A stretch of 63,760 bases of DNA, counting the filler. It is 8 parts of 8 records of this genome, joined end to end, with 100 filler letters (N's around TTAATTAATTAA, not from the genome) between each part and the next. Parts side by side here need not be neighbours in the genome. Positions count along the whole stretch, not along the records: positions 42,953 to 51,878 come from SRR31156797_43328; 7 more parts are not named here. One strand, given 5' to 3'. Positions 3,606 to 58,593 of this stretch are shown in pieces. How positions within the stretch are numbered: the first letter of the stretch is position 1; the number at the start of each line of letters is the position of its first letter. The translations under genes were made by a program, and so were the position numbers. The notes beneath the pieces are model-generated. The model searched no databases, had not been told where the DNA came from, and saw only the letters and a program-made list of their open reading frames with translations.

Positions 3606-5168
3606 TCAATCCATCAGATCGGAATGCCGGCGCAGGAAGCCGCGCGCCGGACGCCATGGAACTTCTAAACCGTAGGGATTGGCACAATCGGCAAATTGAC
3701 TCACCAGTTTTTCGTCCTGATCGGTGTAGACGGCAACCCCTTCGAGTCTCTCGATCATCTCGATGACCGCCTCTTCGATTTCCTCGGGTGGATTTTCCAG
3801 TACACCGATACCCCGTGATTCGAACGGCAGCACATAGTCATTGTTGGCGAATGGAGGTGCCGTCGCCTCGCGCAGGGGCAACACGCGATCCTCGTCCATT
3901 TTTTTGAGCAGTTTGGGGATGAACAGAACCTCATCACCGGCAGGCCAATTGGCCGGCGGGAACCAATTCGTTCCCACGATCGGACGGCCGAAGGCCAGGG
4001 CCACGTCGCCCGGCCCCGACGCCATGCCGATAAAAAAACGGCAGGCGCCAAGTAAAAAGATGTCGAACCAGTCCCGGCGCGGCACAGAGCACGCATAATC
4101 GATGACACCGTCCATCGGCGGCAAAGGTTCCATGGTCGGATCGCCGATCCGAACGACATAGCCGCCGCGCTCGGTTATCGCCCGAATGGCCGGAAAATAG
4201 GCTTCGATGCTGGCGTTCCGAAAGCGGATGGGATCGGACGCTAGAAGCCGGTTCAAGCCCATCGACTGGCGCACGTGAAGGGTTGCAAACCAGGCGTTCC
4301 GGGGCATGCCCAATTCGTGCAGCAGGGCCGTTCCGCGATCTCTGTCCTCATCCTTCAAATCGAAAACCGGAGGGTTGCGTCTTTCCGCCCACCAAGCCTG
4401 AGCCAGACGATAGGCGACATTTCGATGATACCAACGACCGTCCGGACCCGGGAAGTGAAGCGTATCGAAATCGCAACCCGGCCACCGGCGATACAACTTC
4501 TCGGCCTCGGTCCGGTCCGTAACGACGGTGACGAGGTCGCGGGCATAATCGAGCAATCGATTGTTCGGCAACGCCGGAACGGATATCGGCAGTATGGATC
4601 GAAAGTCCGGCAACCATCCTGCTTCGCGGCACTTGACCAGGATATCGAGTGACATCGCCAGTTCGCCGAAACCTTGCGAGATCACCGAAAGCGGTCCGAG
4701 GAGGCGGGTTGGGGGTTCTCCGGTTTGCTTTGCGATCCGTTCCGACTCGGCCTGATGCAGGTCGTTGGCCCGCCGGAATAGTTCAGAAGCCCGATCCAGG
4801 TCTCCGGTCAGATAGACGGGATCGCCCAAATTGACCAGCGCTTCGGTGTCGGACGGATTGACGTCGCTGAGAAGTCCGAAGAACCGTCCTGCCAGCTCCA
4901 GATTTCCGGCATCCTTATATAAATGAGCCAACGCGCGCAGAGCGGTCCCGGCTCCGGCGTCGATCTGGCCCAGCGAGAGCGCCTTCAACAGGTACGGTTC
5001 GGCCACATGCGTATATCGTTGGCGGGCGGCGCAATAGAGGCCGATTTCCAAATTGGCCTGACGGGCTTCCGGATTTTCCTGAACGGCCCGCCATAAGCGC
5101 TCGCGGATCCGCTGATCCTCCTCGGCCAAGGGGTCATTTGCATCCGCCCGGTCAGCCTTGTCGCTCAT
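3606..5168 (-). CDS. TPR-containing putative glycosyltransferase, TIGR04372-like (copy 2)
   Basis: Same motifs as copy 1 and closely similar to it (shared RRWPGCDFDTLHFPGPDGRWY). Start MSDKAD at 5168 with GAGG RBS. Confidence 0.75.
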   Translation of the reverse strand: MSDKADRADANDPLAEEDQRIRERLWRAVQENPEARQANLEIGLYCAARQRYTHVAEPYLLKALSLGQIDAGAGTALRALAHLYKDAGNLELAGRFFGLLSDVNPSDTEALVNLGDPVYLTGDLDRASELFRRANDLHQAESERIAKQTGEPPTRLLGPLSVISQGFGELAMSLDILVKCREAGWLPDFRSILPISVPALPNNRLLDYARDLVTVVTDRTEAEKLYRRWPGCDFDTLHFPGPDGRWYHRNVAYRLAQAWWAERRNPPVFDLKDEDRDRGTALLHELGMPRNAWFATLHVRQSMGLNRLLASDPIRFRNASIEAYFPAIRAITERGGYVVRIGDPTMEPLPPMDGVIDYACSVPRRDWFDIFLLGACRFFIGMASGPGDVALAFGRPIVGTNWFPPANWPAGDEVLFIPKLLKKMDEDRVLPLREATAPPFANNDYVLPFESRGIGVLENPPEEIEEAVIEMIERLEGVAVYTDQDEKLVSQFADCANPYGLEVPWRPARGFLRRHSDLMD

Positions 5169-5205
5169 GTCCGATCCTCGCGCCGGAGAAATCCCCGGAT
5201 TTTCG

Positions 5206-6792
5206 TCAGTCGGCGTCAACCCACTCGGGATGACGCTCAAGGTAGGATGGCGCAATCGGTGCCCACAGGTCGATCCCGTGGGGATCCGCCTGCCGCGCGA
5301 ACTCGGCGGCATGGTCGCCGAGTTCGGCCGCCGCACCGGGAGTCCCGTCCAGCATCGCGAACATGTCGATCACGCCGTCGATAATTTCGTCGGCCGTGTT
5401 GTCGACGACGTCTATTCCCAACCGCTCGAATACCAGCGGATTGATATTCCCCGCCAACGGCGGTTGCACCCCCTCGGCCAGAGTCAACGGACGCCCGGTC
5501 TCGCGGGATATGCGGATTTTCGGCAGGAAAAGGTCCCGGGCTCCGAAGGGCCAAGCCCCCAGCGGTAAGAAATCGGTTGCCAGTACCGGCGTTCCGAATA
5601 CCCGCGCGACATCCGTCGGACCCGACGGCGAACCGAGAACAAACTTGCAGGCGGCTATGCAATAGAGATCCAGCCAAGGGGAGCGGGCCGGGCTGTGCGC
5701 ATAGTCGATGACGCGGTCCATGGGGGGGAAGGTGCTCATGCTTTCATCGCCAAGTCGCACCACCCAGCCGCCACGGTCGGTGATCGCTTTCACCGCCGGC
5801 AGATAGGTTTGAATATCCGGATTTCTCAGATCGTTCTGGGTTCCCAGCACGTCCGCGTTTTCTTCGTAAAACCCGCGCTCGCGTACATGCAGGCAGACAA
5901 ACCAGTCGTCCGGTCCGATGCCCAGGCTTTCCAACGCCGATCGGCATTCGGCCACCTGTGATTTTGGAAATTCGACGATGGGTGGCTTTGCCGCCGCCAC
6001 CCAGGCGGCCTGAATGGCGCCGTAAGCGAGATCCCGGCTGGCGACAATCTTGTCGTTGATCGGAAGGTAATTGGCGAAATAGGGACAGGCCCCGTATTTC
6101 GTTTCGATGTCGGCGATTTCGTCGGCCTCCGTAACCACCCGGACATGCGGCGCCAGGCATTCGGCCAACGGCATGTTGGCGGTCGAACCGGCCGGCGCCA
6201 ACATAATCGCTTCGAAATCATCGACCAGGCCAAGCGCGCGGGCCTTGAGAAACATATCCATCGTCGCCGCCATTTCGCCCATATGGATGCTGATCGTCGA
6301 CGCCGGCGCCAGGATTCTGGTCGGCTCTTCGCGAAGCTGATCGGCAACGGCACGCGCATTGTGATCGAGGATCGTCATCGCATGACGGAAGGCCTGCGAT
6401 GCCGCCTCGATATTGCCGCCCAAGGTCAACGCGTCACCCAGCAGATACAGATAGTTGGCATGGCCGGGGAACTTTTCGACCAGCCAATGGAACAGGGCGA
6501 CGGCGTCGGCGACATTGGCCCGCCGTAAGTTGATCTCGCCCAGGGTGCCGACGATTTTCGGCGTCAGGGCATCCTGTTGGCCGTGCGCCAAGGCTGCCGC
6601 AAGCAGGGATTCGGCTTCAAGCAGATGGTCACGCTTCAGACTCAGCATCAGGCCGAGGCGGGCGTTGGCATCGTAATCATCGGGCGAGGTCGCCAGGCGA
6701 TCGAGCAGGCCGGACATTTCCCTGGCCGCCTCGGCCGAAGCGATATCGCCGATCACCTGTCGAAGCGTTTCAAGAATTTCCGGCGACGCCAT
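5206..6792 (-). CDS. TPR-containing putative glycosyltransferase, TIGR04372-like (copy 3, more divergent)
   Basis: WFVCLHVRE, RNPDIQTY, GGWVVRLGD, IDYAHS, CKFVLGSPSGP, DNTADEI. Confidence 0.75.
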   Translation of the reverse strand: MASPEILETLRQVIGDIASAEAAREMSGLLDRLATSPDDYDANARLGLMLSLKRDHLLEAESLLAAALAHGQQDALTPKIVGTLGEINLRRANVADAVALFHWLVEKFPGHANYLYLLGDALTLGGNIEAASQAFRHAMTILDHNARAVADQLREEPTRILAPASTISIHMGEMAATMDMFLKARALGLVDDFEAIMLAPAGSTANMPLAECLAPHVRVVTEADEIADIETKYGACPYFANYLPINDKIVASRDLAYGAIQAAWVAAAKPPIVEFPKSQVAECRSALESLGIGPDDWFVCLHVRERGFYEENADVLGTQNDLRNPDIQTYLPAVKAITDRGGWVVRLGDESMSTFPPMDRVIDYAHSPARSPWLDLYCIAACKFVLGSPSGPTDVARVFGTPVLATDFLPLGAWPFGARDLFLPKIRISRETGRPLTLAEGVQPPLAGNINPLVFERLGIDVVDNTADEIIDGVIDMFAMLDGTPGAAAELGDHAAEFARQADPHGIDLWAPIAPSYLERHPEWVDAD

Positions 6793-7542
6793 CTAGTCTT
6801 CCCGAGCAATGTCGAGACGGAGGCGATAGGTTATTCCGTCGCGGGTCAACAGGGCCGTCGAATCCGGTTCGAAATCGTGGGCCAGAACCCGATCGATCAA
6901 TTCGTCGACCTTCATGGCTTCATCGCCTTCAATCTTGCGATCGGCGACCGTGTCACGCCGTCGGTGATAGGATCCTTTCCCAGCCTGCGGAACGGTATTT
7001 AAGCGTCCGGCGTAGATATCCGGCCACCGGTCCCGGAACAGTTGAACCAATTCCGTCTTTAGGCGGCGTTGAAAATCGGCTCCGGTTTCCGGAAATTCAT
7101 ACGGCACGACTTTTTGAGAGTAGATCGCACCGGTATCGATCCCGGCCTCCATTTCGACCAAGGAAACCCCGGACGGCTCACCATCCCGTATCGCCCAGGT
7201 CGCGCAGTCGTTGCCCCGGCAATGGGGAACCAGGGCCGGATGAATATTGAGCCGGCGATCAAACAATTGCAGGAACTCGGGCGATAAGATCCGATCCGCC
7301 CAGAGATTGAGCAGCCAGGCATACCGATTTCCATCGGCCACCATCCGATCCAGAATCTCGTCGGTGACAATGTCGGCCGGAACCCCGGCGGACTCCGCCA
7401 CGGCCAGGATATCCGTATCGGTCGGGCGAATGACATAGAGCCGGGCCAGGTCCGTTCCGCTGGCGATCAGGGCCTCAAAGGCGTCGCGGCCGACATCCTT
7501 GGTCGCAAAAACGATGATCTCAGGATTTTCCCCGCTCGTCAT
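6793..7542 (-). CDS. Formyltransferase family protein (likely NDP-aminosugar N-formyltransferase)
   Basis: LNIHP...RG...WAI...G...IDTG with the N/H/D catalytic residues present; lies in a sugar-biosynthesis context. Confidence 0.8.
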   Translation of the reverse strand: MTSGENPEIIVFATKDVGRDAFEALIASGTDLARLYVIRPTDTDILAVAESAGVPADIVTDEILDRMVADGNRYAWLLNLWADRILSPEFLQLFDRRLNIHPALVPHCRGNDCATWAIRDGEPSGVSLVEMEAGIDTGAIYSQKVVPYEFPETGADFQRRLKTELVQLFRDRWPDIYAGRLNTVPQAGKGSYHRRRDTVADRKIEGDEAMKVDELIDRVLAHDFEPDSTALLTRDGITYRLRLDIARED

Positions 7543-9009: not shown

Positions 9010-9109
9010 NNNNNNNNNNNNNNNNNNNNNNNNNNNNNNNNNNNNNNNNNNNNTTAATTAATTAANNNNNNNNNNNNNNNNNNNNNNNNNNNNNNNNNNN
9101 NNNNNNNNN
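9010..9109. other. Artificial contig linker
   Basis: N-run/TTAATTAATTAA/N-run, 100 bp; abrupt GC shift across it. Confidence 0.99.
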
Positions 9110-16532: not shown

Positions 16533-16632
16533 NNNNNNNNNNNNNNNNNNNNNNNNNNNNNNNNNNNNNNNNNNNNTTAATTAATTAANNNNNNNNNNNN
16601 NNNNNNNNNNNNNNNNNNNNNNNNNNNNNNNN
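16533..16632. other. Artificial contig linker
   Basis: N-run/TTAATTAATTAA/N-run. Confidence 0.99.
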
Positions 16633-28921: not shown

Positions 28922-29021
28922 NNNNNNNNNNNNNNNNNNNNNNNNNNNNNNNNNNNNNNNNNNNNTTAATTAATTAANNNNNNNNNNNNNNNNNNNNNNN
29001 NNNNNNNNNNNNNNNNNNNNN
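28922..29021. other. Artificial contig linker
   Basis: N-run/TTAATTAATTAA/N-run. Confidence 0.99.
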
Positions 29022-37148: not shown

Positions 37149-37248
37149 NNNNNNNNNNNNNNNNNNNNNNNNNNNNNNNNNNNNNNNNNNNNTTAATTAA
37201 TTAANNNNNNNNNNNNNNNNNNNNNNNNNNNNNNNNNNNNNNNNNNNN
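37149..37248. other. Artificial contig linker
   Basis: N-run/TTAATTAATTAA/N-run. Confidence 0.99.
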
Positions 37249-42852: not shown

Positions 42853-42952
42853 NNNNNNNNNNNNNNNNNNNNNNNNNNNNNNNNNNNNNNNNNNNNTTAA
42901 TTAATTAANNNNNNNNNNNNNNNNNNNNNNNNNNNNNNNNNNNNNNNNNNNN
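42853..42952. other. Artificial contig linker
   Basis: N-run/TTAATTAATTAA/N-run. Confidence 0.99.
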
Positions 42953-43176
42953 CCCATTTCGAGCGCGGGGTGGCGCTTGCCGGCACCCGGAATCTCATGG
43001 CACGGGTACTCTATGCCGACAAATACGCCCGGCCCATGTTTGACCGGGATCTCCACGACAGGCTGTTGACCGAGGTCATGTCATTACCGGCCGCAACCGA
43101 AGGATACACCTTGATAAACACCCTTGCCAAGGAGCAGGCCCAGGCACTGCTCGAGAGTGGTGACGACTACTTTTAA
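42953..43176 (+). CDS. TatT (T component of a TPAT/TRAP system), C-terminal fragment
   Basis: HFERGVAL...NLM..V.YA..YAR...DR.LHD.LL.EV...N.LAK..A..LL....DYF, directly upstream of dctP. Confidence 0.75.
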
Positions 43177-43198
43177 CTACAATTGAGAAGGATCAACC

Positions 43199-44197
43199 AT
43201 GCTATTGAGAATTAGCCGTCTTGTCCTCTTTGTGCTCCTGGTTCTTTTTACTGACAGTGTCCATGCCAGGGTTTTCAAGATCGCGACCCTTGCGCCGTCA
43301 GGGTCGTTTGAGATGACCCAGATGGCGGCCGCGGCAGAAGAGATCACGGCCGCCACTGAAGGCAGGGTGCGTTTCAAGTTCTTTCCGGGCGGGGTCATGG
43401 GAAACGACCAGGGCGTTTTAAGGAAGATCCGCATCAACCAGCTCCAGGGCGGGGCCGTATCACTGGGAAGCCTGTCCCGCTATTACCCGGACAGCCAGGT
43501 TTACTGCCTTCCTTTTGTCTTCAATTCCTTTGAGGAGGTCGACTATGTAAGGAAAAGAATGGACCCGATCCTCATGAAGGGGTATGAAAAAGCGGGATTC
43601 ATTGTTTTTGGTCTTGCCGAAGGGGGATTCGCCCGGATCATGTCCAGCAATCCCGTGGCGACGGTGTCCGATCTCCAGAAACAGAAGGTGTGGATCCCCG
43701 AAAAAGATGCCGCTGCCCTGGAGGCGGTGAGAGCCTTCGAAGTCAGCCCCATCACCCTTTCCCTGGCCGATGTGAGGACCGGGCTCCAGACGGGGTTGCT
43801 CAATACGGTGACGATTCCCCCGGCCTATGCCATCCTCCTGCACTGGCACACCCAGATCCGCTACATCACCCAGATCCCCCTGATTTATACCAACGGCCTT
43901 ATGGCCATTGCCAAGGGACCGTTTTACAAGCTGTCGCCCGGTGACAGGGCCGTGGTCCGGTCCAGGATGGGCGAGGCCTTTAAGCGAATCGACAAACACA
44001 ACCGCCGCCAGAACGTCGAGGCCATGGAGGTGCTTAAAGAGATGGGGATCAAGTTCGTTGTTCCCGATGCCAATGCCTCCCGGACCTGGGTGAAGCGATC
44101 CAAACGGGTTCCGGAACAGCTGGCTGCCAAGGGGGTTTTATCGAAAGAGATCCTCGATACCATTAACATGCATCTTTCCGCGATCAGGGCAAAGTAG
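43199..44197 (+). CDS. dctP: TRAP transporter substrate-binding protein
   Basis: KIATLAP.GS, T.GRV.FK..PGGVMG....LRKIR..QL.G, LQTGL. Confidence 0.88.
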   Translation: MLLRISRLVLFVLLVLFTDSVHARVFKIATLAPSGSFEMTQMAAAAEEITAATEGRVRFKFFPGGVMGNDQGVLRKIRINQLQGGAVSLGSLSRYYPDSQVYCLPFVFNSFEEVDYVRKRMDPILMKGYEKAGFIVFGLAEGGFARIMSSNPVATVSDLQKQKVWIPEKDAAALEAVRAFEVSPITLSLADVRTGLQTGLLNTVTIPPAYAILLHWHTQIRYITQIPLIYTNGLMAIAKGPFYKLSPGDRAVVRSRMGEAFKRIDKHNRRQNVEAMEVLKEMGIKFVVPDANASRTWVKRSKRVPEQLAAKGVLSKEILDTINMHLSAIRAK

Positions 44198-44198
44198 A

Positions 44199-44687
44199 AT
44201 GACGGCTTTTTCCGTTAGAAAATGGCTCTACCGGGTGGAGGATTTCATTCTCATCCTTCTTGTGCTGACCATGATCGTCATGGCCGTTCTCCAGATCGTC
44301 CTGAGAAACACCATGGGCTCGGGGATTGTCTGGGGCGACACCCTGGTGCGAATCCTGGTGCTCTGGACCGGGCTTGTGGGCGCCATGGCCGCCACCCGGC
44401 AGAACAATCACATCAACATCAATATCGTGACCCGCTATCTCTCAAGCAGAACCGCTTTGCTTGTGAACACCCTGACCCTTGTTTTTACGGCCTTTATCTG
44501 TCTGTTGACCGCCTGGTACAGCCTGGCTTTTGTGCGGATGGAGTTTGAGTTCAGCACGCCTGCCTTTGCCGGTGTCCCGGGCTGGCTCTGCCAGTCCATC
44601 ATTCCCGTCGCGTTCCTGGTGATCGGCCTGCGATGCCTGGATAATGCCATAACCTCCTTTCAACGCTACCACAAGCCGAAACCGTGA
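44199..44687 (+). CDS. dctQ: TRAP transporter small permease
   Basis: Four TMs; QIVLRN, W.D..VR..VLW.G..GA..A.R...HI.I. Confidence 0.88.
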   Translation: MTAFSVRKWLYRVEDFILILLVLTMIVMAVLQIVLRNTMGSGIVWGDTLVRILVLWTGLVGAMAATRQNNHININIVTRYLSSRTALLVNTLTLVFTAFICLLTAWYSLAFVRMEFEFSTPAFAGVPGWLCQSIIPVAFLVIGLRCLDNAITSFQRYHKPKP

Positions 44688-45964
44688 CTCTTTTTATCTT
44701 TGTCTCCATAGCCGTCATTTTCGCCCTTCTGGGAACGCCTTTGTTCGCCGTGATCCTGGCCATCGCCTGTGCCGGGTTTTACTTTTCCGGCATCGATTTG
44801 TCGGCCATTGCCATCGAACTCTACAGGCTCACCGACACCCCGGTCATGTCGGCCCTGCCTTTGTTCACCGTTGCCGGTTACCTCCTGGGTGAGAGCAACA
44901 CCTCCACCCGTCTTGTCCGGTTGTCCAGGGCCTTCCTGGGATGGATGCCCGGGGGGCTTGCCGTGGTCAGCTTTGTCACCTGCGCCCTGTTCACCGCCTT
45001 TACCGGGGCTTCCGGCGTTACCATCGTTGCCGTGGGCGCATTGCTGCTTCCGGCCCTGACCCGGGCCGGTTACGGTGATAAGTTCAGCCTGGGGCTTGTC
45101 ACCACCTCGGGCAGCCTCGGGCTGCTGCTTCCTCCCTCCCTGCCGCTGATTCTCTACGGCATCGTTGCCCAGCAGATGGGCAGCGGTTCGACCATCGAGA
45201 TCGAAGAGCTCTTTATCGCAGGCATACTTCCCGCCGTCACCATGATCGTGCTTTTGTCCCTGTGGAGTGTCACCGCCAGCAGGGGCCGGCCCATTCCCCT
45301 GCAAGGGTTTTCCTGGGCCGAGGCTGGGGCGGCCATAAAGGACGCCGCCTGGGAGATTCCCCTGCCGGTCTTTCTTATCGCCGGCATCTACGGCGGGATT
45401 TTTGCCGTTTCAGAGGCCGCCGCCGTGGTCGCCCTCTATGTCCTGGTGGTCGAGGTCTTTGTCTATAAAGAAATCCCGATTGCAAGGCTGCCCGTGATTT
45501 TAAGGGAGGCCATGGTCATGGTGGGGGGAATCCTCCTGATCCTTGGCGTCAGCCTCGCCTTTACCAATTTCCTGGTGGATGCGGAGGTCCCGGCAAGGCT
45601 TTTCACCCTGATCCAGGGCCATATTTCCGGCAAGTTCACCTTCTTGATTCTCCTGAATCTCATCCTGCTTTGCCTGGGGGCCATCCTGGATATTTTTTCC
45701 GCCATCGTCATCATGGTGCCCCTGCTGCTTCCCGTTGCCGAAAGCTACGGCATCAATCCCATCCATCTTGGGATCATCTTTCTTGCCAATATGCAGATCG
45801 GCTACTTTACCCCGCCCGTGGGCATGAATCTTTTCATCGCCTCCTACCGGTTCAAGAAACCGGTGACCGAGATCTACAGTTCGGCCCTGCCGTTCATGTT
45901 CGTGATGCTCCTGGCCCTTGTCATCATCACCTATGTGCCGTGGCTCAGCCTCATTCTCCTGTGA
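44684..45964 (+). CDS. dctM: TRAP transporter large permease
   Basis: ALPLFT.AG, TGASG, GSLG.L.PPS, G..TPPVG.NLF. Confidence 0.93.
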   Translation: MTLFIFVSIAVIFALLGTPLFAVILAIACAGFYFSGIDLSAIAIELYRLTDTPVMSALPLFTVAGYLLGESNTSTRLVRLSRAFLGWMPGGLAVVSFVTCALFTAFTGASGVTIVAVGALLLPALTRAGYGDKFSLGLVTTSGSLGLLLPPSLPLILYGIVAQQMGSGSTIEIEELFIAGILPAVTMIVLLSLWSVTASRGRPIPLQGFSWAEAGAAIKDAAWEIPLPVFLIAGIYGGIFAVSEAAAVVALYVLVVEVFVYKEIPIARLPVILREAMVMVGGILLILGVSLAFTNFLVDAEVPARLFTLIQGHISGKFTFLILLNLILLCLGAILDIFSAIVIMVPLLLPVAESYGINPIHLGIIFLANMQIGYFTPPVGMNLFIASYRFKKPVTEIYSSALPFMFVMLLALVIITYVPWLSLILL

Positions 45965-46205
45965 TTTATTACTTGCTTTATTAAAATGATGTTGGTAAGG
46001 GTGAATTATATCGCAGGGGAATGATCTCCCTGATATGTGACGAAATCCTTTAACATTTTATCGCCCGACAATTAGATGCTCACTTGGTATCTCTTGTGGA
46101 GTCAGCTGTCTATGCTTTTGTTCAAGCTTGTTTCCGGTTTGCCGGCGGCAGTAATCGATACTGCCCGGCAATTACAAACAACCCCTTTCTTAAAAGGAGA
46201 AAAGG

Positions 46206-47624
46206 ATGATGAAAAAAAGCTTGGTCTGGTTATTGTGTATCGCATTGTTGAGCTTCCCCATTGGTGCCGCGGCAAAAATGGGATCCGGCAAGGTCGTCGC
46301 AAAAAGCAACGATATCGACATCTCCATGTTCGGCTCCTTGAAGGCGTTTCCCTTTTTTGTTGAAAACGCCGATTTTAACAGCGATGATACGGGATTTGAT
46401 CGTCTTCTGGACGAGTCCGGCTGGTTTGAAAATCACAGCGTACGATCCGAGATCCGGGTCGGCTGGACCGCAAAAGCGGAAAACTGGGATTTCCTGGTGA
46501 TCCTCGAGTCTGATTTCGTCATGAACAAGGCAAACGCGGACAGGGGGGCCGATGGCACCACTATCGATGACTGCGGCATGACGGGTGAGGACTTTGGTGT
46601 TGAAAAGCTCAATTTCGGCTACAATTTTGGAGCGTTCAGGGTGGATACCGGGTGGAATACCAAGTTCCTGGATCTGAAAACCGGTGGTATCCTTTACGGC
46701 GATGACCATCCCTACATCGCTCTCAGCGGTAAGGTAAATGATTCCATGGGCTGGGACTTCATGTATCTCATGATTCAGGATGAGATCGAAAACAAGAACG
46801 GCATTCTGGATGGGGACAGTTTGGACTGGCGTGCCTATACGTTTCGATTCCATTTTGATTTGAAAGATTTCACCCTGGCGCCCATCTACGCTTATAGCGA
46901 TAATGAGGACCATGACGCGCAAACCCATTATATCGGGGTTGAAGGGTATGGAAAGATCGGTGCCCTTGTCCCCCGGTTTGAGTTGATTTACGCCACCGGC
47001 GACCTGGGCGAAGGTTCTTCCGAAGCCGATATTTCGGCATTCGGGGCATATGCCTCCCTGGAGCTGGAGGTGTGTAAAGGGTTCAAACCCTATGTGGGCG
47101 GTTATTTTATGACCGGTGATGATGACGCCAATGACGAAGATGTGGACGCCTTTAACGGCATTACCAATATCTCCCGGTATACCCCGACCTTTGGGATGGA
47201 GAATGCCATGATCTATCGATACATCCCAGCCATTGGCTCCCATCTCTACAGCAATAATTTTGCCACCCTGGGAAATACTGCGGGGTACGGTGGAATTTCG
47301 AATTCCTCCAAGGCAGACTCCCCTGGCATGATGATGCTGGGGCTTGGTGCAAAAGGAACCATGGGGGCCTGGGGATATCAGGCCCAGGTCATGTATTTCC
47401 TTTTTGAGGAAGAGGGGGCCCTTGAAGATATTTACGGAACCAGCATAGACAGTGAGGTGGGTACGGAACTTGACCTTCGTGTCACCTATGCTTTCAACAA
47501 GCACTTCTCCCTGGGAAACGTCATCTCCGTCTTTATCCCGGGCGATGCTGTTGAAGATCTCCGGGGCAGTGATTACGATGATACGGCATTTCTCAATACG
47601 GTTGAAATGACCTGGAAATTTTAA
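46206..47624 (+). CDS. Outer membrane beta-barrel porin-like protein
   Basis: Signal peptide, acidic loops with alternating aromatic strands, C-terminal ...MTWKF; AGGAG RBS. Confidence 0.72.
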   Translation: MMKKSLVWLLCIALLSFPIGAAAKMGSGKVVAKSNDIDISMFGSLKAFPFFVENADFNSDDTGFDRLLDESGWFENHSVRSEIRVGWTAKAENWDFLVILESDFVMNKANADRGADGTTIDDCGMTGEDFGVEKLNFGYNFGAFRVDTGWNTKFLDLKTGGILYGDDHPYIALSGKVNDSMGWDFMYLMIQDEIENKNGILDGDSLDWRAYTFRFHFDLKDFTLAPIYAYSDNEDHDAQTHYIGVEGYGKIGALVPRFELIYATGDLGEGSSEADISAFGAYASLELEVCKGFKPYVGGYFMTGDDDANDEDVDAFNGITNISRYTPTFGMENAMIYRYIPAIGSHLYSNNFATLGNTAGYGGISNSSKADSPGMMMLGLGAKGTMGAWGYQAQVMYFLFEEEGALEDIYGTSIDSEVGTELDLRVTYAFNKHFSLGNVISVFIPGDAVEDLRGSDYDDTAFLNTVEMTWKF

Positions 47625-47650
47625 GTTTATTCCTGAATGATTTTCTTTCA

Positions 47651-47695
47651 CCTGCCCGGCTCGTCAGCCTGAACGTGACCGGGCAGGATTTTTTT
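47651..47695 (+). terminator. Rho-independent terminator
   Basis: CCTGCCCGG...CCGGGCAGG stem followed by ATTTTTTT. Confidence 0.7.
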
Positions 47696-47711
47696 CCTGG
47701 CAGGCTAACCC

Positions 47712-49511
47712 ATGGGAGGATCGATGGATATCAATAAAAAATCGTTTGCATGGTTCACTGTTTTAATTTTGCTGTTCCTGTTCTATCCAAATGCGGTTTT
47801 GGCCGATGCCATGGAGTGGGGGGACGCCCTGTCGTTTCTACGGGAAAAATTTCCCAGCGCCCATGTGCATGTGGGCGATGTGGTTGAGACCAACGGGAAC
47901 CGTGTGGTGTTTCATCTGAAAACCGGAACGGCCGGGGTTCCCTCAAGGGGGAGTGAGTTGATGGTCACCGGCCATGAACCGGATATCCCGGTGTATTTGC
48001 AGAAAGAGACAGGCATAATAAAAGTCCTTTCTGTTTTTGAGGATAAGGGGCTTGCCCAACAGGTGAGTTTGTTTAAAGGCAGGGTGGAAAAAGGGGATTG
48101 TGTTGTGATGCCGGCCTCTCCAACGGTCTATCTCCATACCAATATCAAAGACAGGGACTCGTTTCCGCCCTATCAGGAATTGCTCCAGGGGCTCATTGAC
48201 GAGGAGCTGGAGGTGGTTGAGGTCCATGATTCCACCGTTTCCGTCAATAGCGGCACCTATGGGGTGCTGCTGCGGTTGGATGCGGGTAATGGGTCCCTTG
48301 CATTGAAACTTAAGTCCATCTATTCCGGCAACACCATTTATTCCGGTTTCGTTCCTTTTGGAACAAATGCGGCTCTTTTGAAGCGGCCGGGGAGTGCGGC
48401 CAAGGCAGGCCTTTCCAAAAAGCGTCATGACCCTGGGGTGCCCATGGACCGGGAACCTTTCGCCCCGGAACCGCCGACCCGGGGGCCTCAAGAGTATTTA
48501 TCCCTGGAAGATGAGTATAAACGCTTTGTCTTTGCCGATATGGACGCAGATGGCCTGCAAGAGCTGATGTTGCTCAATGACAAAGGCATCTTTGGATTCA
48601 AGGCGGTTGACGGCAACTACAGGGCCTGGGACAGCTTTTTGTTCAACGGTTCTGATCTTTTGGCCATTCACCTCCATCGGGGAGACATGGACCTGGATGG
48701 AAAAGATGAACTTCTTGTGACCCTTGTCGAAGAGACTGAGCATATGGGAAAAAAGGATCATGCTCTCAGATCGTTGATTCTCACATATGCCAATGGTACC
48801 TTTGCTACTCTGGATGATCGCCTGCCCCTTTATCTTCGTACCATTGAGGACAGGGATGGAAAAAAGGTTTTCATTGGTCAGGCAAGCGGAAAGCATGAGC
48901 CTTATGCCGGTCCTATTTATCAAATACGCTACGATAAAATGAAAAAAAAGATTGTTGCGGATCAATTGTACAAGCCCGCAGCCGAGGTTTTTTCACTGTA
49001 TCAGTTTAACCTGGATCCTTTTGATGGGGATCATTTGCTGATATTGGAGCCCGGCAATGACCTATATGGATACCATGCGTCCGAAGAGGCGGTCGGTGTG
49101 ATCTCATCGCGGAACTACGGCGCCTATGAGGAGATATCCTATCCTGTTAAGTTAAGGAAGGAGCATTATTCCCAGGGGGACTTCCAGGGGATTGGATGGA
49201 AAACGGTTTTTGCTCCAAGGCGTTTTGAGTTGAAAAAAAAGCATGACCAACTGGTGTTTTTGATCAATAAAGAGAGATCTTCCAATTTCACAAGCACGGC
49301 GTTCAAGAAGATTCTTGGAAGACCTACCGGAAAGGATCAGATCCTGGGGATCAAGTGGCAAGGACGGAAGCTTGTTGAGACCTGGGTATCCGAGGGGATC
49401 GAAAGAGACATCATCGATTTTTGCTTTGCGGGAGATGCCATCCATGTTCTTGCCAGGAACACCACTGGTGACTGCTATCTCTCGACCATTGATTCCCTTG
49501 ATTCGTTTTAG
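47712..49511 (+). CDS. Secreted FG-GAP/VCBS-repeat protein
   Basis: Signal peptide; FADMDADGLQEL and GDMDLDGKDELLV Ca-binding repeats. Confidence 0.65.
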   Translation: MGGSMDINKKSFAWFTVLILLFLFYPNAVLADAMEWGDALSFLREKFPSAHVHVGDVVETNGNRVVFHLKTGTAGVPSRGSELMVTGHEPDIPVYLQKETGIIKVLSVFEDKGLAQQVSLFKGRVEKGDCVVMPASPTVYLHTNIKDRDSFPPYQELLQGLIDEELEVVEVHDSTVSVNSGTYGVLLRLDAGNGSLALKLKSIYSGNTIYSGFVPFGTNAALLKRPGSAAKAGLSKKRHDPGVPMDREPFAPEPPTRGPQEYLSLEDEYKRFVFADMDADGLQELMLLNDKGIFGFKAVDGNYRAWDSFLFNGSDLLAIHLHRGDMDLDGKDELLVTLVEETEHMGKKDHALRSLILTYANGTFATLDDRLPLYLRTIEDRDGKKVFIGQASGKHEPYAGPIYQIRYDKMKKKIVADQLYKPAAEVFSLYQFNLDPFDGDHLLILEPGNDLYGYHASEEAVGVISSRNYGAYEEISYPVKLRKEHYSQGDFQGIGWKTVFAPRRFELKKKHDQLVFLINKERSSNFTSTAFKKILGRPTGKDQILGIKWQGRKLVETWVSEGIERDIIDFCFAGDAIHVLARNTTGDCYLSTIDSLDSF

Positions 49512-49598
49512 GGGCAGACCTTGCCCGGTTTTGTCTTTCTGTTTTCATTAGAGAGCTGTTGACAATACCCGGCTCCATGCTCTATATGGTTACACGAT

Positions 49599-49793
49599 AA
49601 ACAGGTGCAAACCCATGTGCGTAAGCACGGGTAACGTTAAAAGGAAAGAGGGTGAAGGTCCCTCGCATGCCAGCCGTTGCCGTGATCGGGGACAAACGCC
49701 GCACAATGCCACTTGGGAGCAGCTTACACTTGAGTTCTCCCTGGGAAGGCGCGGCAAGTAGGATGATCCGTAAGCCGGAAAGCCTGCCTGTTT
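49599..49793 (+). ncRNA. Cobalamin (B12) riboswitch
   Basis: P1 AAACAGG/CCTGTTT; AGGTGC start, TAAAAGGAAAGAGGGTGAAGGTCCCTCGC, GCCACTTGGG...CTGGGAAGGC, B12-box AAGCCGGAAAGCCTGCC; TTGACA at 49559. Confidence 0.88.
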
Positions 49794-49911
49794 GTGGGTG
49801 TATTTTGAGGATTCTTGCTGGATGTTATCCCAATCGATTACCGGCCAGGGGTGCGTCTTTTTGCGGAACCGGCACGTCCCCCCGGCTGGCTGACTATATT
49901 GGGAGGTTAGC

Positions 49912-51012
49912 ATGAACATGGAGCAGGACCGGGCGTTTGGCGCCGTCATCACCCGTCTTATTCAAAAGCAGGATCTGACACGAACCCAGGCAAAGGATGC
50001 CTTTGTCACCATTTTAACCGACAAGACCACCCCCATGCAGCAGGGTGCTTTCCTTGCGGCCCTGGCGGCCAAGGGGGAGACCGAGCACGAGGTGGCGGCC
50101 GGGTGGGAGGCCATTTACAACCTGGACACCTGCAAGGTCTCCGTAAAAACAGCCACGCCGGTGGTCGAGAATTCGGGCACGGGCATGGACACTTTCAAGA
50201 CCTTCAACATCAGCACGGCCGCGTCCCTCATTGCCGCGTCCCAGGGGATTCCCATGGCAAGGCACGGGGCAAGGGCCATCACCTCGCCCTGCGGAACCGT
50301 TGACATGGTCGAGGCCCTGGGCATCGATGTGGAGTGCGGCCCGGAGCTTGTCGCCCAAAGCATTGAAACTGCAGGCATCGGCCTTTTCAACGGAATGAGC
50401 CCCCAGGTACATCCCATGGCCCTCGGCAGGATTCTTTCCCAGATCAGTTTCGGTTCCACCTTGAACATCGCGGCGTCCCTTGCCAACCCGGCCCTGCCAA
50501 CGCTCGGGGTGCGGGGCGTTTATTCCCGGGAGATGGTCCTGCCCGTGGCCAGGGTGATGAAGGAGATCGGGTATGAGAGGGCCCTTGTGGTCCACGGCTC
50601 TGTTTTCGGGACCGATCTTGGCATGGACGAAGCCTCGGTGTGCGGCACCACCTTCTGCGCCGAGTTGTCCATGGATGGCGATATCCGGGAGTACAGTTTT
50701 GCGCCCGATGCTTTTGGCATGGGGGATTTCGATCCCAGGGAGCTGACCCCGGACGCGAGCTGCGACCGTGAGGCAAGGCGGTTTGTCAAACTTCTCCGGA
50801 CAGGGGCCGGGGGGGCCAGGGCCGAGGCCGCCATCCTCAATGCCGCCCTGATCTTTTACATTTCGGGCAGGGAGAAAACCATTGGCAAGGGGGTTGCCCG
50901 GGCTGCCAAGGCACTGAAGAGCGGTGCGGCCTTTGACTGCATGGAACGATGGGTGGGCACTCAGACCCAGGCGCCTGAAGCCGGCCTTGCAAAACTTCGA
51001 TCATTCATATAG
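49912..51012 (+). CDS. Divergent anthranilate phosphoribosyltransferase (TrpD)-like protein
   Basis: KGET..E, SGTGMD..KTFNISTAAS, RHGAR, DMVEALGI, ANPA, VHG...GMDE; GGGAGG RBS; no other trp genes adjacent. Confidence 0.85.
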   Translation: MNMEQDRAFGAVITRLIQKQDLTRTQAKDAFVTILTDKTTPMQQGAFLAALAAKGETEHEVAAGWEAIYNLDTCKVSVKTATPVVENSGTGMDTFKTFNISTAASLIAASQGIPMARHGARAITSPCGTVDMVEALGIDVECGPELVAQSIETAGIGLFNGMSPQVHPMALGRILSQISFGSTLNIAASLANPALPTLGVRGVYSREMVLPVARVMKEIGYERALVVHGSVFGTDLGMDEASVCGTTFCAELSMDGDIREYSFAPDAFGMGDFDPRELTPDASCDREARRFVKLLRTGAGGARAEAAILNAALIFYISGREKTIGKGVARAAKALKSGAAFDCMERWVGTQTQAPEAGLAKLRSFI

Positions 51013-51021
51013 GGGGCGGCA

Positions 51022-51237
51022 ATGGAGACGACACTTTTGATCATCAAGAACCATGACCGGTATATTCGGGTCAGCCGGGTCAGGGAGGATGAATACCAGG
51101 AGTGCAACCTGGACAAGGCAAGCGTATTTCCCATGGAAAAACTGGATGAGGTGAAACGCCATGTGGCCGCCATGAAGGAAAACGGGTTTGAACGGCCTGT
51201 CATGGCAAAGTTGATTTTACGGGAAGAGCCGTTTTAA
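51022..51237 (+). CDS. Small hypothetical protein (71 aa) in the riboswitch operon
   Basis: 9 bp after the trpD-like stop, GGGGG RBS, globular-looking composition. Confidence 0.65.
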   Translation: METTLLIIKNHDRYIRVSRVREDEYQECNLDKASVFPMEKLDEVKRHVAAMKENGFERPVMAKLILREEPF

Positions 51238-51328
51238 GCGTTATCGCCCATTGCACAGGCAAAGGAGCAATTGGAGCGCAACGGTCTCAAGCGTTACGTT
51301 TTTGAGAGACGCGCAGGAGGGGAATAAG

Positions 51329-51878
51329 ATGAAAAAATTGGTATTGACCGGGCTGAAACGTTTTTCCATGGACGAGGCCCCCCTGCCCGAACCCGGGCAG
51401 GGCGAAAAGCGGTTGCGGGTGCTGTTCTGCGCCGTTTGCAGGACCGACGCCAAGATGTGGAGCCAGGGTCATCGGGACCTTGTCTTCCCCAGGGTGATGG
51501 GCCATGAAGTGGTTGCGGAAGATGAGCAAGGCAAACGGTTCGTCATCTGGCCCGGCACCAGCTGCGGCCGGTGTTCCCATTGCGCGGCCGGCCGGGAGAA
51601 CCTCTGCGAATCCATGACCATCATGGGCTTTCACAATGACGGCGGGTTTGCCGGGTATGTGGTTGCCCCGGAGGCAAGCCTTGTGCCGGTGCCGGACAGC
51701 CTTTCCCCATGGATCGCCTGTTTTGCCGAGCCCGTGGGGTGTGTGCTCAATGCCGTGTCAAAGCTTGATCTTGAACCGGGTCAGCGGGTGTTGATTTACG
51801 GGGGCGGCACCGTGGGCCTGATCGCCGCCCTTGTGTGCAAGGACATGGGCGGCGATGTCTGTATCATCGAAAAGAGCG
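51329..51878 (+). CDS. Zn-dependent medium-chain dehydrogenase (threonine/iditol DH-like), 3'-truncated
   Basis: CRTD, GHE, structural Zn site CGRCSHC...ENLC, EP, GGGTVG; GGAGG RBS. Confidence 0.88.
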
Positions 51879-51978
51879 NNNNNNNNNNNNNNNNNNNNNN
51901 NNNNNNNNNNNNNNNNNNNNNNTTAATTAATTAANNNNNNNNNNNNNNNNNNNNNNNNNNNNNNNNNNNNNNNNNNNN
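51879..51978. other. Artificial contig linker
   Basis: N-run/TTAATTAATTAA/N-run. Confidence 0.99.
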
Positions 51979-53841
51979 ATTCAGGGCCAGCAGGTTGGTC
52001 TGAAAAGCAATTTCGTCGATCGTCTTGATAATCTTTCCGATTTCCTGGCCGGCGCTGGAAATTTCTTCCATGGAATTGGTCATCTGGTTCATGGAGTCAC
52101 CGGCCCGTGACATGGTGTTTCTGGCTTCATCCATAAGAGAGTTGGCCTGCGATGCATTATCCGCGTTCTGTTTGGTCATGGATGACATCTCTTCAAGGGA
52201 TGAAGAGGTTTCTTCCAGGGCGGCCGCATTCTCACTGGCGCCCTCGGCCAGTGACTGGCTGGCTGAAGACACCTGGGCGGAGGCGGAGGCTACTTGTTCC
52301 GCACCGCTGCTCATTTGCGTGGAAATGGCTTGCAGCAACTTTGAGATGCCCCGGGCAATGAAAAAGGCAAACAAGATACCCAAGACAACGGCCACGGCTC
52401 CGACTACGGTAACATTACGCTTGGTTCCCTGGGCGGCGTCAAGCATCACCACGTCGGTCATTATGTTGTTTTTAGCTTTTTTACGGATTTCCGTAAGCAG
52501 GCCCTGAACTTTTTTCAGGTTTTCCTTTGTGTCCTTTGCATAAATCCGATTGGCCTCATTGAATCCTTTCTGAAGAGCTTCCTCAGCCTCTATTGCCTCG
52601 CCGATATGTTTTTTCACCTGCTCCAATGCCGGAAGGGTTTTGGACTCAAACAGGTTCAAGGCTTTCTGCATTTCGAATTCATTAACCGCTTTCTCGATTT
52701 CCACGGCTGACTGGTGTAGGTGATTGTGCGGTTCAATCACCGTTTCCATGGCTGTTTTGAATTCAGGGAAGGTCTTCATCAACTCGGCTGTTTCCTTCGA
52801 AGCCAGGAATTTACCGAATGCACACTTGGTCGGGTCCAGTTGCACGTTTAGCGAGAAGGGCACGCCTTTATCAAGGTTTTCCGCACGGGTGATGAGCGCC
52901 TTGTTATGTTCATCCAGAAACACGCCGGTTCCGATGATCCAGTTCCAGGGTTTATAAAGCTTGACATACGTATATTTGGGGACAGGCTTTTCGCTCCCAA
53001 TCTTCGGCCAATAATAAATCAGGTAGCCTTCGCCATGGTTTTTAGCCAGTTTTGCCAATTCCTGAAAAAGCATCTTTCCCTTCGTGTCGGCTGTATCCGC
53101 CATATTCTTGCCGATCATGTCCTTGTTTGGATGAACTATCATTGTATGGGATGTATCCATAACAAAGACGTAATCTTTCATGTCCGCTCCAAAACGAATT
53201 CCGTTCAACATCGTTTTCGCGGTCAACTGTTTTTCACTCAGATCTGCGGCGACGCTGTTTTGGTCAATGCTTTCAACCGCGGTTAAGGCCTGGTTGACTG
53301 CGTCGCGAACCTGCACCCGATAGGTTGGGATGCCTCCTACCTCCATGGCCAAGCCCTTGTTTGCGGCTGCCGCCCATTGGAGATGATCGTTTAGCCGGTT
53401 AGCCAGGGTTAGGGTCAGGCCAGGGTGGGGTTGGGTGTATGATTCACTTATTTTTATCGCAGACTCATGAAGGTGGTTGTGCGGGGCTTCGATTTCTTTG
53501 AGTAGAGGCGTTAAACTGGGCACAAGCGCCTCGGCCTGGCGCCTGCCCTCTCCATAATACCATTGTCCGAAGCCGCACTTGTGGGCGTCTGTTTGAACAT
53601 CTAACTTGGTTACATGGTCATCTGTCAGCAAGGCATTGACACTATTGACCCAATTGAGGTGGTCCACTTCTTTTTGGGCTAATACTCCGTCAAGCTTGTT
53701 TCCGTCAATAACTTCCGAGGCGTTACCAACGATCCCGCCCACTCCAGTGTAACTCAGGATTCCGGTCAGGCTCAACAGGACCAGGACCAGTCCAAAGCCC
53801 ACCGCGATTCTCTTGCCAATTGTCAAATTTTTCCAATTCAT
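51979..53841 (-). CDS. Methyl-accepting chemotaxis protein with CZB and Cache sensor domains, 3'-truncated
   Basis: TM1, CZB (DHLNW, CGFGQW, HNHLH), Cache, second CZB motifs, TM2, IDEIAFQTNLLALN. Confidence 0.92.
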
Positions 53842-58493: not shown

Positions 58494-58593
58494 NNNNNNN
58501 NNNNNNNNNNNNNNNNNNNNNNNNNNNNNNNNNNNNNTTAATTAATTAANNNNNNNNNNNNNNNNNNNNNNNNNNNNNNNNNNNNNNNNNNNN
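58494..58593. other. Artificial contig linker
   Basis: N-run/TTAATTAATTAA/N-run. Confidence 0.99.

Follow-up and report, generated by a model that had tools for sequence, protein, structure and literature searches.

A cobalamin riboswitch-controlled gene set joining a divergent TrpD paralog and a zinc dehydrogenase to CobT, with a probable role at the lower-ligand end of cobamide synthesis

The stretch of DNA analysed here (the window, 63,760 nucleotides) consists of eight contigs with identical artificial linkers between them, and gene neighbourhoods can be read within one contig only. At the 3′ end of the contig at positions 42953-51878 lies a locus in which a cobalamin riboswitch is followed by a gene for a paralog of TrpD (anthranilate phosphoribosyltransferase), a gene for a small conserved protein and the 5′ part of a gene for a zinc-dependent dehydrogenase. 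An earlier interpretation made from the letters alone (the sequence-only reading) had seen in this locus a cobamide biosynthesis module built around a divergent TrpD-like enzyme, a view now supported by the riboswitch, by the paralogy of the TrpD-like gene and by its linkage to cob genes. No trp genes were found on the contig. The features of the locus are as follows.

49559-49588, + strand: promoter-like site, read directly from the sequence (TTGACA at 49559-49564, an 18-nt spacer, TATATG at 49583-49588)
49586-49805, + strand: cobalamin riboswitch aptamer (RF00174), identified with Rfam
49806-49911, + strand: expression platform region, between the aptamer and the ATG
49912-51012, + strand: TrpD-family phosphoribosyltransferase paralog, 366 aa (PF02885 and PF00591)
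51022-51237, + strand: small conserved protein, 71 aa (open reading frame, no family)
51329-51878, + strand: Zn-dehydrogenase (MDR family, NAD-type), N-terminal 183 residues (PF08240)

The predicted riboswitch was confirmed by a full-length match to RF00174 (model positions 1-189 of 189; 70.3 bits against a gathering score of 31.5; E value 2.5e-15), which is the sole Rfam match across the 63.8-kb window. The aptamer ends 106 nt before the ATG at 49912, on the same strand as the TrpD-like gene, and a Shine-Dalgarno sequence, GGGAGG, is situated at 49901-49906. A candidate anti-Shine-Dalgarno sequence, UCCCAAU (49828-49834), pairs with AUUGGGA (49898-49904) in both the minimum free energy and the centroid folds of 49780-49930. 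Because shuffled sequence folds just as stably (z = -0.20), translational control through this pairing can only be suggested. A search for an intrinsic terminator from the aptamer to the start codon found none, and termination of that kind was rejected as the expression platform. We infer from its sequence that the TTGACA/TATATG site ahead of the riboswitch functions as a promoter; a consensus promoter scan, which demands a T at the last -10 position, does not list it.

The TrpD-like protein passes the NCBI trpD model (TIGR01245, 243 bits against a cut-off of 199.05), and the solved structures nearest to it are all anthranilate phosphoribosyltransferases. Models of AMP and thymidine phosphorylases give weak matches of 31-38 bits, far below their cut-offs. 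Every motif quoted in the sequence-only reading (GTG.D, TFNIST, GMDE, RHGAR and an altered LGP segment) is present in the protein, where GTGMD occupies residues 89-93, TFNIST 97-102, ARHGAR 116-121, ISFGSTLNIAASLANP 178-193 and GMDE 237-240.

Relatives of this protein were collected in a survey with one genome per species, and the best 80 of 133 were taken as loci (the genome loci). Most are from Desulfobacterales metagenome-assembled genomes; the isolates include Desulfocicer vacuolatum, a Desulforhopalus and a Desulfopila, and one locus is from Draconibacterium (Bacteroidota). The 80 module copies were aligned with five canonical TrpDs of related genomes. A passage of PMC5537072 gives GTGGD as the signature glycine-rich loop of TrpD, assigns anthranilate binding to the lysine of KHGN, and places the essential anthranilate-binding arginine on helix alpha8 (Arg193 in the Mtb, Arg164 in the Sso and Arg159 in the Tk enzyme). 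It is apparent from the alignment that each of these sites is altered in the paralogs. The glycine-rich loop is GTGMD in 80/80, as against GTGGD in 5/5 canonical TrpDs; the KHGN-type motif reads ARHGAR (R117 in 80/80, A120 in 77/80) instead of AKHGNR; and the column of the essential arginine holds Leu in 80/80 paralogs and Arg in 5/5 canonical proteins. A second arginine column is Gly (G181) in the paralogs and Arg or Lys in canonical TrpDs, and the LGP segment reads AAS. Invariant arginines at R173 and R201 are new in the paralogs, as are five residues inserted after VHG; canonical TrpDs have none of these. F95-K96, part of the clade signature, is invariant or nearly so in the 80 sequences and differs from the five canonical TrpDs. 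The motifs for phosphoribosyl pyrophosphate (PRPP) and metal (G-T-G-x-D, NxST and DE) are kept as in canonical TrpDs, the DE motif for the second metal (D239 and E240) in 80/80 sequences. The altered acceptor motifs that had been singled out earlier are therefore invariant throughout the clade and not peculiar to the window sequence.

In a HMMER alignment to structure 9ucw, the essential-arginine column corresponds to L175 of the window protein; two one-residue gaps near this column could be placed otherwise, and the invariant R173, two residues earlier, may reach the acceptor pocket from one turn earlier. The pocket is therefore best described only as not that of TrpD, and the acceptor may still carry an anionic group.

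Two genes matching the trpD model were found in each of five module-bearing whole genomes, one scoring 389-420 bits and the module copy 238-250 bits. The canonical gene is situated between trpE-trpG and trpC-trpF in 4 of the 5; for the fifth (L081), the trpE-trpG side only was examined. In 5/5 related genomes the module protein is thus a second, low-scoring copy and not the sole TrpD, which the sequence-only reading had named among the outcomes that would count against it. In the survey of genome and metagenome loci, no trp gene was seen adjoining a clade member.

TrpD-family matches numbered 8406 in a search of 1.84 billion representative proteins; among the matches listed, about 16 of 75 full-length top representatives carry the signature. 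In a tree of 124 sequences (one row, L116, a wrong-strand extraction, was disregarded), the signature clade is monophyletic with support 1.0. It joins two sister groups in a larger clade, equally supported at 1.0, that branches among canonical TrpDs on a long stem of 0.61 substitutions per site. In an even sample of genomes, the core type was found in 12 of 401 from Desulfobacterota, plus one broken copy, and in 1 of 401 from Bacteroidota. A sister-type TrpD-like gene, 35% identical to that of the window, occurs in nine small Bacteroidota genomes and two Desulfobacterota genomes; it adjoins a Zn-dehydrogenase gene wherever annotated, and in L115 and L118 a cobalamin riboswitch precedes the pair.

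The dehydrogenase gene of the window starts at ATG 51329, preceded by AGGAGG, and its product matches ADH_N (PF08240) with 60.3 bits. Position 51878 is the end of the contig and not that of the gene, because the N run of the inter-contig linker begins there. The continuation can be seen in the closest relative, L001, whose TrpD-like protein is 93% identical to that of the window. Its third gene encodes 713 aa comprising ADH_N, ADH_zinc_N and DBI_PRT (CobT, 432.5 bits), and the window fragment is 92.7% identical over 192 residues to the start of this dehydrogenase-CobT fusion. In the relatives, therefore, the dehydrogenase does form the N-terminal part of a protein fused to a cob enzyme, as had been guessed earlier. 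What follows the TrpD-like gene in the 80 genome loci is listed below.

Dehydrogenase-CobT fusion, single frame: 51
Dehydrogenase and CobT found as separate hits: 3
Dehydrogenase, no complete CobT within 4.5 kb (L074: partial): 11
Dehydrogenase running off the contig: 7
Downstream DNA insufficient: 5
No dehydrogenase: 3

The dehydrogenase is the steadiest partner of the TrpD-like gene, which it accompanies in 72 of the 75 genome loci whose downstream DNA is long enough. Its catalytic zinc residues C43, H68 and E143, four structural cysteines, the GxGxxG motif and E190, the acidic residue after the second strand, are invariant in 52/52 fused and 13/13 unfused homologues; the zinc ligands, the cysteines and GxGxxG all lie inside the 183 residues present in the window. 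In the CobT domain, the glutamate of the LGEGTGA catalytic motif is invariant in 52/52 fusions and GEMGIGNTT is nearly so. Because these catalytic residues are kept, both halves of the fusion look active. Among NCBIfam models, those of L-threonine 3-dehydrogenase give 93 and 90 bits with the window fragment, against cut-offs of 380 and 458, and 128 bits with the dehydrogenase of the Bacteroidota sister form; models of several polyol and sugar-phosphate dehydrogenases score at least as well. In databases the fusion is labelled as plain CobT and the TrpD-like gene as trpD. A database search placed the fusion gene in the cultured organisms Desulfobacula toluolica, D. phenolica, Desulfocicer vacuolatum and Desulfamplus magnetovallimortis.

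Riboswitches were located in the relatives with a profile built from four Rfam-confirmed examples, which detected the element just ahead of the TrpD-like gene in 67 of the 80 genome loci, although what is left in L002 is only a 45-nt remnant (the 3′ end of the riboswitch). At its gathering score Rfam detected it in 3 of 7 and 19 of 20 loci (L059 missed), in 1 of 9 profile-negatives (L048) and not in L002, which makes 23 of 37 in all. A full riboswitch is accordingly present in 67 of the 80 genome loci, 66 by profile and L048 by Rfam; the upstream DNA of L008 extends over 288 nt only.

The window and L001 contigs are 91-92% identical at the DNA level, and the window has 3.9 kb extra at 45966-49897 (opposite 9889-9988 of L001). 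This stretch holds an Alginate_exp-like gene, an FG-GAP gene and the riboswitch; its counterpart in L001 is approximately 100 nt, without a riboswitch. Because the two differ by a stretch that bears the riboswitch, regulation by it has been lost or gained even inside this species group.

A metagenome scan was seeded with distant members of the clade, and 80 loci were kept, comprising 73 of the clade and seven canonical TrpDs. The order found in the window, TrpD-like gene, small open reading frame (in some loci absent) and dehydrogenase (with or without CobT), occurs in 18 of the 73, and the reverse order, with the dehydrogenase ahead of the TrpD-like gene and CobT usually absent, in 42; the remaining 13 loci are too short for the order to be read. 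The pocket signature is kept in both orders, the KHGN site of the dehydrogenase-first form having R or K at its first position and A120 or S. When the count is restricted to loci with 350 nt or more of upstream DNA, the first gene has a riboswitch ahead of it in 13 of 14 loci with the order of the window and in 20 of 33 with the dehydrogenase first (13 by profile and 7 more by Rfam, which was applied to 17 of the 20 profile-negatives).

Several loci place the pair directly among cobamide genes. In the Draconibacterium locus (L009), a riboswitch is followed by genes for a TonB receptor, a PKD protein, a DUF4430 protein, the TrpD-like protein, the small protein and the dehydrogenase-CobT fusion, and then by CobU, a second CobT, CobS, a CobC-type phosphatase, CobQ and CbiB. 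L158 has the order riboswitch, dehydrogenase, TrpD-like gene, CobT, CobS; in L176 the TrpD-like gene is followed by CobT; and in L194 CbiB and a class I/II aminotransferase precede riboswitch, dehydrogenase and TrpD-like gene. In L131 a riboswitch (3947-4142, 35.6 bits), the dehydrogenase, the TrpD-like gene and CbiZ are followed by a second riboswitch (7349-7521, 63.8 bits) and a TonB-dependent receptor; clusters of this kind with CbiZ were found in 3 of the 73 metagenome loci and in none of the 80 genome loci. Taken over the loci, the adjoining genes in some cases are cobU, cobT, cobS, cobC, cbiB, cbiZ or btuB, and the neighbours in the five loci named all belong to nucleotide-loop assembly, remodelling or corrinoid uptake. 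Homologues are strongly linked both to cobalamin riboswitches and to cob genes; the lack of any such linkage, which the sequence-only reading had named as evidence against its proposal, was not observed.

No further conserved partner was found in the flanks of the 80 genome loci, and in the 73 metagenome loci no partner other than the dehydrogenase occurs in more than six. In 13 of the 80 genome loci, a gene for an EamA-family transporter is found on the same strand about 0.5-1 kb upstream of the TrpD-like gene; this is taken as lineage synteny among Desulfobacula-like genomes, or could reflect export or import of a small aromatic compound. Immediately upstream and on the same strand in five riboswitch-less loci, including L005, L010, L012 and L029, is a shikimate-kinase-family gene (PF01202), which is taken as lineage synteny or may hint at a link to an aromatic pathway. 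Two single observations may be added. In L124 (contig 117 of G438, 4029-7448), a core-type TrpD-like gene is followed by a gene for a 737-aa molybdopterin oxidoreductase, with no dehydrogenase; and in L163 a TwoAYGGAY RNA (RF01731, 67.5 bits) is found at 4009-4164, approximately 600 nt downstream of the TrpD-like gene.

CobT is encoded twice in each of the five module genomes, once by a standalone gene and once within the fusion. The standalone cobT adjoins a ThiC-family (BzaF-like) gene in three of them (G001-G003). In the module genomes G006 and G009, no ThiC-family gene was found, and G007 and G008 each have a single one, with a score within the range of copies located away from cobT. Because some module genomes have BzaF-like genes and a search of others found none, the module neither co-occurs with them nor excludes them. 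BluB was not found above its cut-off in any of ten module genomes (0/10), a result that is uninformative for anaerobes, and a PncB-type nicotinate phosphoribosyltransferase (PF04095), found in 4 of the 10, does not discriminate.

The 71-aa protein between the two enzymes has no match in Pfam or NCBIfam, and its homologues are named only as hypothetical; a small open reading frame is found at this place in 63 of the 80 genome loci. An AlphaFold2 model was obtained with a pLDDT of 92.6. Comparison with known structures gave no convincing fold match (Foldseek against PDB, best E value 0.96; VIA-align, best Z 4.9 over 48,161 chains), and the ESM Atlas returned only 'hypothetical protein' clusters, at 0.89 or less. 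The copy in the window has an extra VSR after YIR that is found in none of the other 63 copies, including the otherwise near-identical one of L001.

The remaining features of the contig and its surroundings are as follows.

5′ of the riboswitch: genes for DctP, DctQ and DctM (TRAP transporter), the Alginate_exp-like outer-membrane protein and the FG-GAP protein
49512-49526: terminator-like hairpin, closing the upstream gene
51979-53841, - strand: methyl-accepting chemotaxis protein with CZB and Cache domains, on the next contig; C-terminus cut by a linker; unrelated to the operon
9010-9109, 16533-16632, 28922-29021, 37149-37248, 42853-42952, 51879-51978 and 58494-58593: the seven linkers (no strand; read from the sequence), each 44 N, TTAATTAATTAA and 44 N

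On these comparisons, the operon is probably the 5′ part of a corrinoid-repressed unit serving cobamide synthesis at its lower-ligand (nucleotide-loop) end. The riboswitch would permit expression under corrinoid scarcity, probably by freeing the ribosome-binding site. The paralog would then move phosphoribose from PRPP to an acceptor other than anthranilate, as suggested by the conservation of the PRPP and metal sites beside a rebuilt acceptor pocket; the NAD-dependent dehydrogenase would act on the ribotide so formed or on its precursor; and the fused CobT domain would convert the resulting base to an α-ribotide, to be joined by CobS to the corrin. At the heart of the set is the conserved TrpD-like/dehydrogenase pair, often joined by CobT, the small protein and the riboswitch. 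That transferase and dehydrogenase occur together so constantly, whether or not CobT is there, argues for successive action on one metabolite, and the fusion of dehydrogenase and CobT argues that a substrate of CobT is the outcome.

Several observations weigh against this interpretation. Thirteen of the 80 genome loci lack a full riboswitch, and the closest relative, L001, is among them. There are 11 loci that have a dehydrogenase without CobT and three that have no downstream dehydrogenase, and most Desulfobacterales loci have unrelated flanks, the fused CobT being the only cob link there. Both the CobT part and the canonical trpD are known from the genomes of relatives and not from the organism of the window itself. 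Since the TrpD-like protein passes the cut-off of the NCBI trpD model, some activity on anthranilate may persist. At least three module genomes carry a BzaF-like gene beside the standalone cobT, so that the module is not the sole possible source of a lower ligand in those organisms, and no gene of the module would make an unusual aromatic acceptor.

A more specific form of the proposal, tentative and rather unlikely on present comparisons, is that the pair opens a third way to a benzimidazole-type lower ligand, one that works anaerobically and needs neither BluB nor BzaF. The paralog would N-ribosylate an aromatic amine with PRPP, C1′ of the ribose would become C2 of the imidazole after NAD-dependent oxidation and C-C cleavage, and the fused CobT would activate the new base, for which 5-methylbenzimidazole is a candidate. 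Such a route would have a parallel in the BluB, BzaF and tryptophan (TrpD-TrpF-TrpC) pathways, all of which use ribose or ribityl carbons. 5-Methylbenzimidazole is not known to occur as a bza pathway intermediate. Kräutler et al. 1988, by its title as given in the reference list of PMC7617358, places 5-methylbenzimidazolyl-cobamides in sulfate-reducing bacteria.

Other roles for the TrpD-like enzyme would leave the dehydrogenase to one side. It might supply the donor for CobT, acting as an ATP-independent phosphoribosyltransferase for nicotinate (or a related pyridine) that remakes nicotinate mononucleotide (NaMN) from the nicotinate released by CobT, so that the two enzymes together would turn PRPP and a base into an α-ribotide. 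The stereochemistry fits, as TrpD-type enzymes invert PRPP to a β-ribotide and CobT inverts a β-ribotide to an α-ribotide, and the coupling to CobT is tight, the fusion partner being in the same operon in 51 of the 80 loci. The essential arginine is gone, but with R173 invariant two residues earlier, and R201 in addition, a carboxylate site may simply have moved. Only 4 of the 10 module genomes have a PncB-type enzyme; those four, however, hold both PncB and the module, NaMN is an ordinary intermediate of NAD synthesis for which a dedicated source is not obviously needed, and the dehydrogenase, the steadiest partner (72/75) and present also in the dehydrogenase-first order, is left without a role. 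Donor supply is accordingly considered unlikely. The same objection regarding the dehydrogenase, which gains no clear role, applies to remodelling or salvage, in which the TrpD-like enzyme would run backwards, by pyrophosphorolysis or phosphorolysis, and free a base from a nucleotide (a lower-ligand ribotide after CbiZ-type cleavage, or a common nucleotide) for CobT to re-attach. The TrpD fold is common to nucleoside and AMP phosphorylases, and the weak matches to the AMP and thymidine phosphorylase models are in keeping with such a reaction, but they fall far below the cut-offs, and the PRPP-binding and second-metal motifs of TrpD are fully kept. CbiZ directly follows the dehydrogenase-first pair in L131, TonB-dependent receptors lie behind cobalamin riboswitches in the L009 and L131 loci, and trpD, a dehydrogenase and cbiZ are listed with cobalamin genes in variable regions in a figure legend of a Chlorobium population study (PMC8620254), without discussion there. 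The adjacency of CbiZ is, however, rare (the three metagenome loci given above), and remodelling is judged distinctly improbable.

Two further explanations would separate the enzymes altogether or return the paralog to tryptophan synthesis. The dehydrogenase might serve the aminopropanol arm, a possibility also raised in the sequence-only reading; it would then be a threonine or aminopropanol dehydrogenase, with the TrpD-like protein an unrelated accessory. L-threonine 3-dehydrogenase models are indeed among its best NCBIfam matches, but nothing beyond a generic likeness (93 bits against a cut-off of 380) emerged. Moreover, the fusion partner is CobT, and not CobD or CbiB, which points to the base/ribotide side of the loop, and the constant TrpD-like partner would go unexplained, so that a linker function is very improbable. 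The passing score in TIGR01245 and the nearest structures are what would be expected of an ordinary second anthranilate phosphoribosyltransferase, a tryptophan isozyme placed behind a B12 riboswitch by chance. This is scarcely credible given that the anthranilate-binding motifs described in the passage of PMC5537072 are altered in every member examined, that a canonical trpD is flanked by trp genes in 5/5 related genomes and no trp gene adjoins any clade locus surveyed, and that the clade stands on its long, fully supported stem.

With TrpD, a class IV phosphoribosyltransferase, the module paralog shares the two-domain architecture, an above-cut-off score and the G-T-G-x-D, NxST and DE motifs. 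It differs in having GTGMD for GTGGD, RHGA for KHGN, Leu and Gly for two arginines, R173 and R201, and the insert; it is also never found in a trp operon, is a second copy in the genomes checked, and is accompanied by a Zn-dehydrogenase and a B12 riboswitch. Hazra and co-workers in 2015, cited in PMC8620254 and PMC10553843, reportedly described riboswitch-controlled bzaAB/bzaF-cobT-bzaCDE operons for anaerobic benzimidazole synthesis. These resemble the module in their control by a cobalamin riboswitch, in a cobT copy joined to ribotide enzymes and in the presence of two cobT genes per genome, whereas the module has no ThiC-family radical SAM enzyme and no methyltransferase and has instead a TrpD paralog and an MDR dehydrogenase. 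In Sporomusa ovata, two CobT homologues form the heterodimer ArsAB, a specialised system for phenolic lower ligands that likewise provides a second CobT homologue beside the standard one; of the proteins with solved structures, ArsA is one of those nearest to the fused CobT domain (241 bits). Unlike ArsAB, which comes with neither a PRPP enzyme nor a dehydrogenase, the module has a single CobT domain with the invariant LGEGTGA glutamate, placed behind a dehydrogenase. YbiB/TrpD2 proteins are DNA-binding TrpD-like proteins with no role in tryptophan synthesis, and in this sense are likewise TrpD-fold paralogs outside that pathway; the module protein, however, scores only 31.6 bits with NF006005 against a cut-off of 185, and its clade, in which the PRPP and metal motifs are retained, falls among catalytic TrpDs in the tree. 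Full-text literature searches, in which subscription journals were largely uncovered, turned up no account of the gene set, so that an earlier mention is possible; the only trace was the figure legend of the Chlorobium study. The dehydrogenase-CobT fusion did not come up when Shelton et al. 2019 (PMC6461909) was searched for terms such as 'fusion' and 'fused'. The novelty is that of a new enzyme pair attached to a known stage of the pathway.

The lower ligands of cobamides decide which organisms can use which B12-type cofactor. To our knowledge, only three ways of obtaining or activating these ligands are understood (BluB, the bza genes and CobT/ArsAB), and we know of no source for several natural lower ligands. 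The conserved, riboswitch-controlled gene set described here ties a PRPP-dependent transferase with a rebuilt pocket, and a dehydrogenase, to CobT, and the names that databases give to these genes mislead. As a consequence, tryptophan-pathway calls made from genomes gain a false second trpD, and genome-based predictions of cobamides miss a candidate determinant of the lower ligand. The carriers include cultured and sequenced isolates, in which the function of the module is directly testable.

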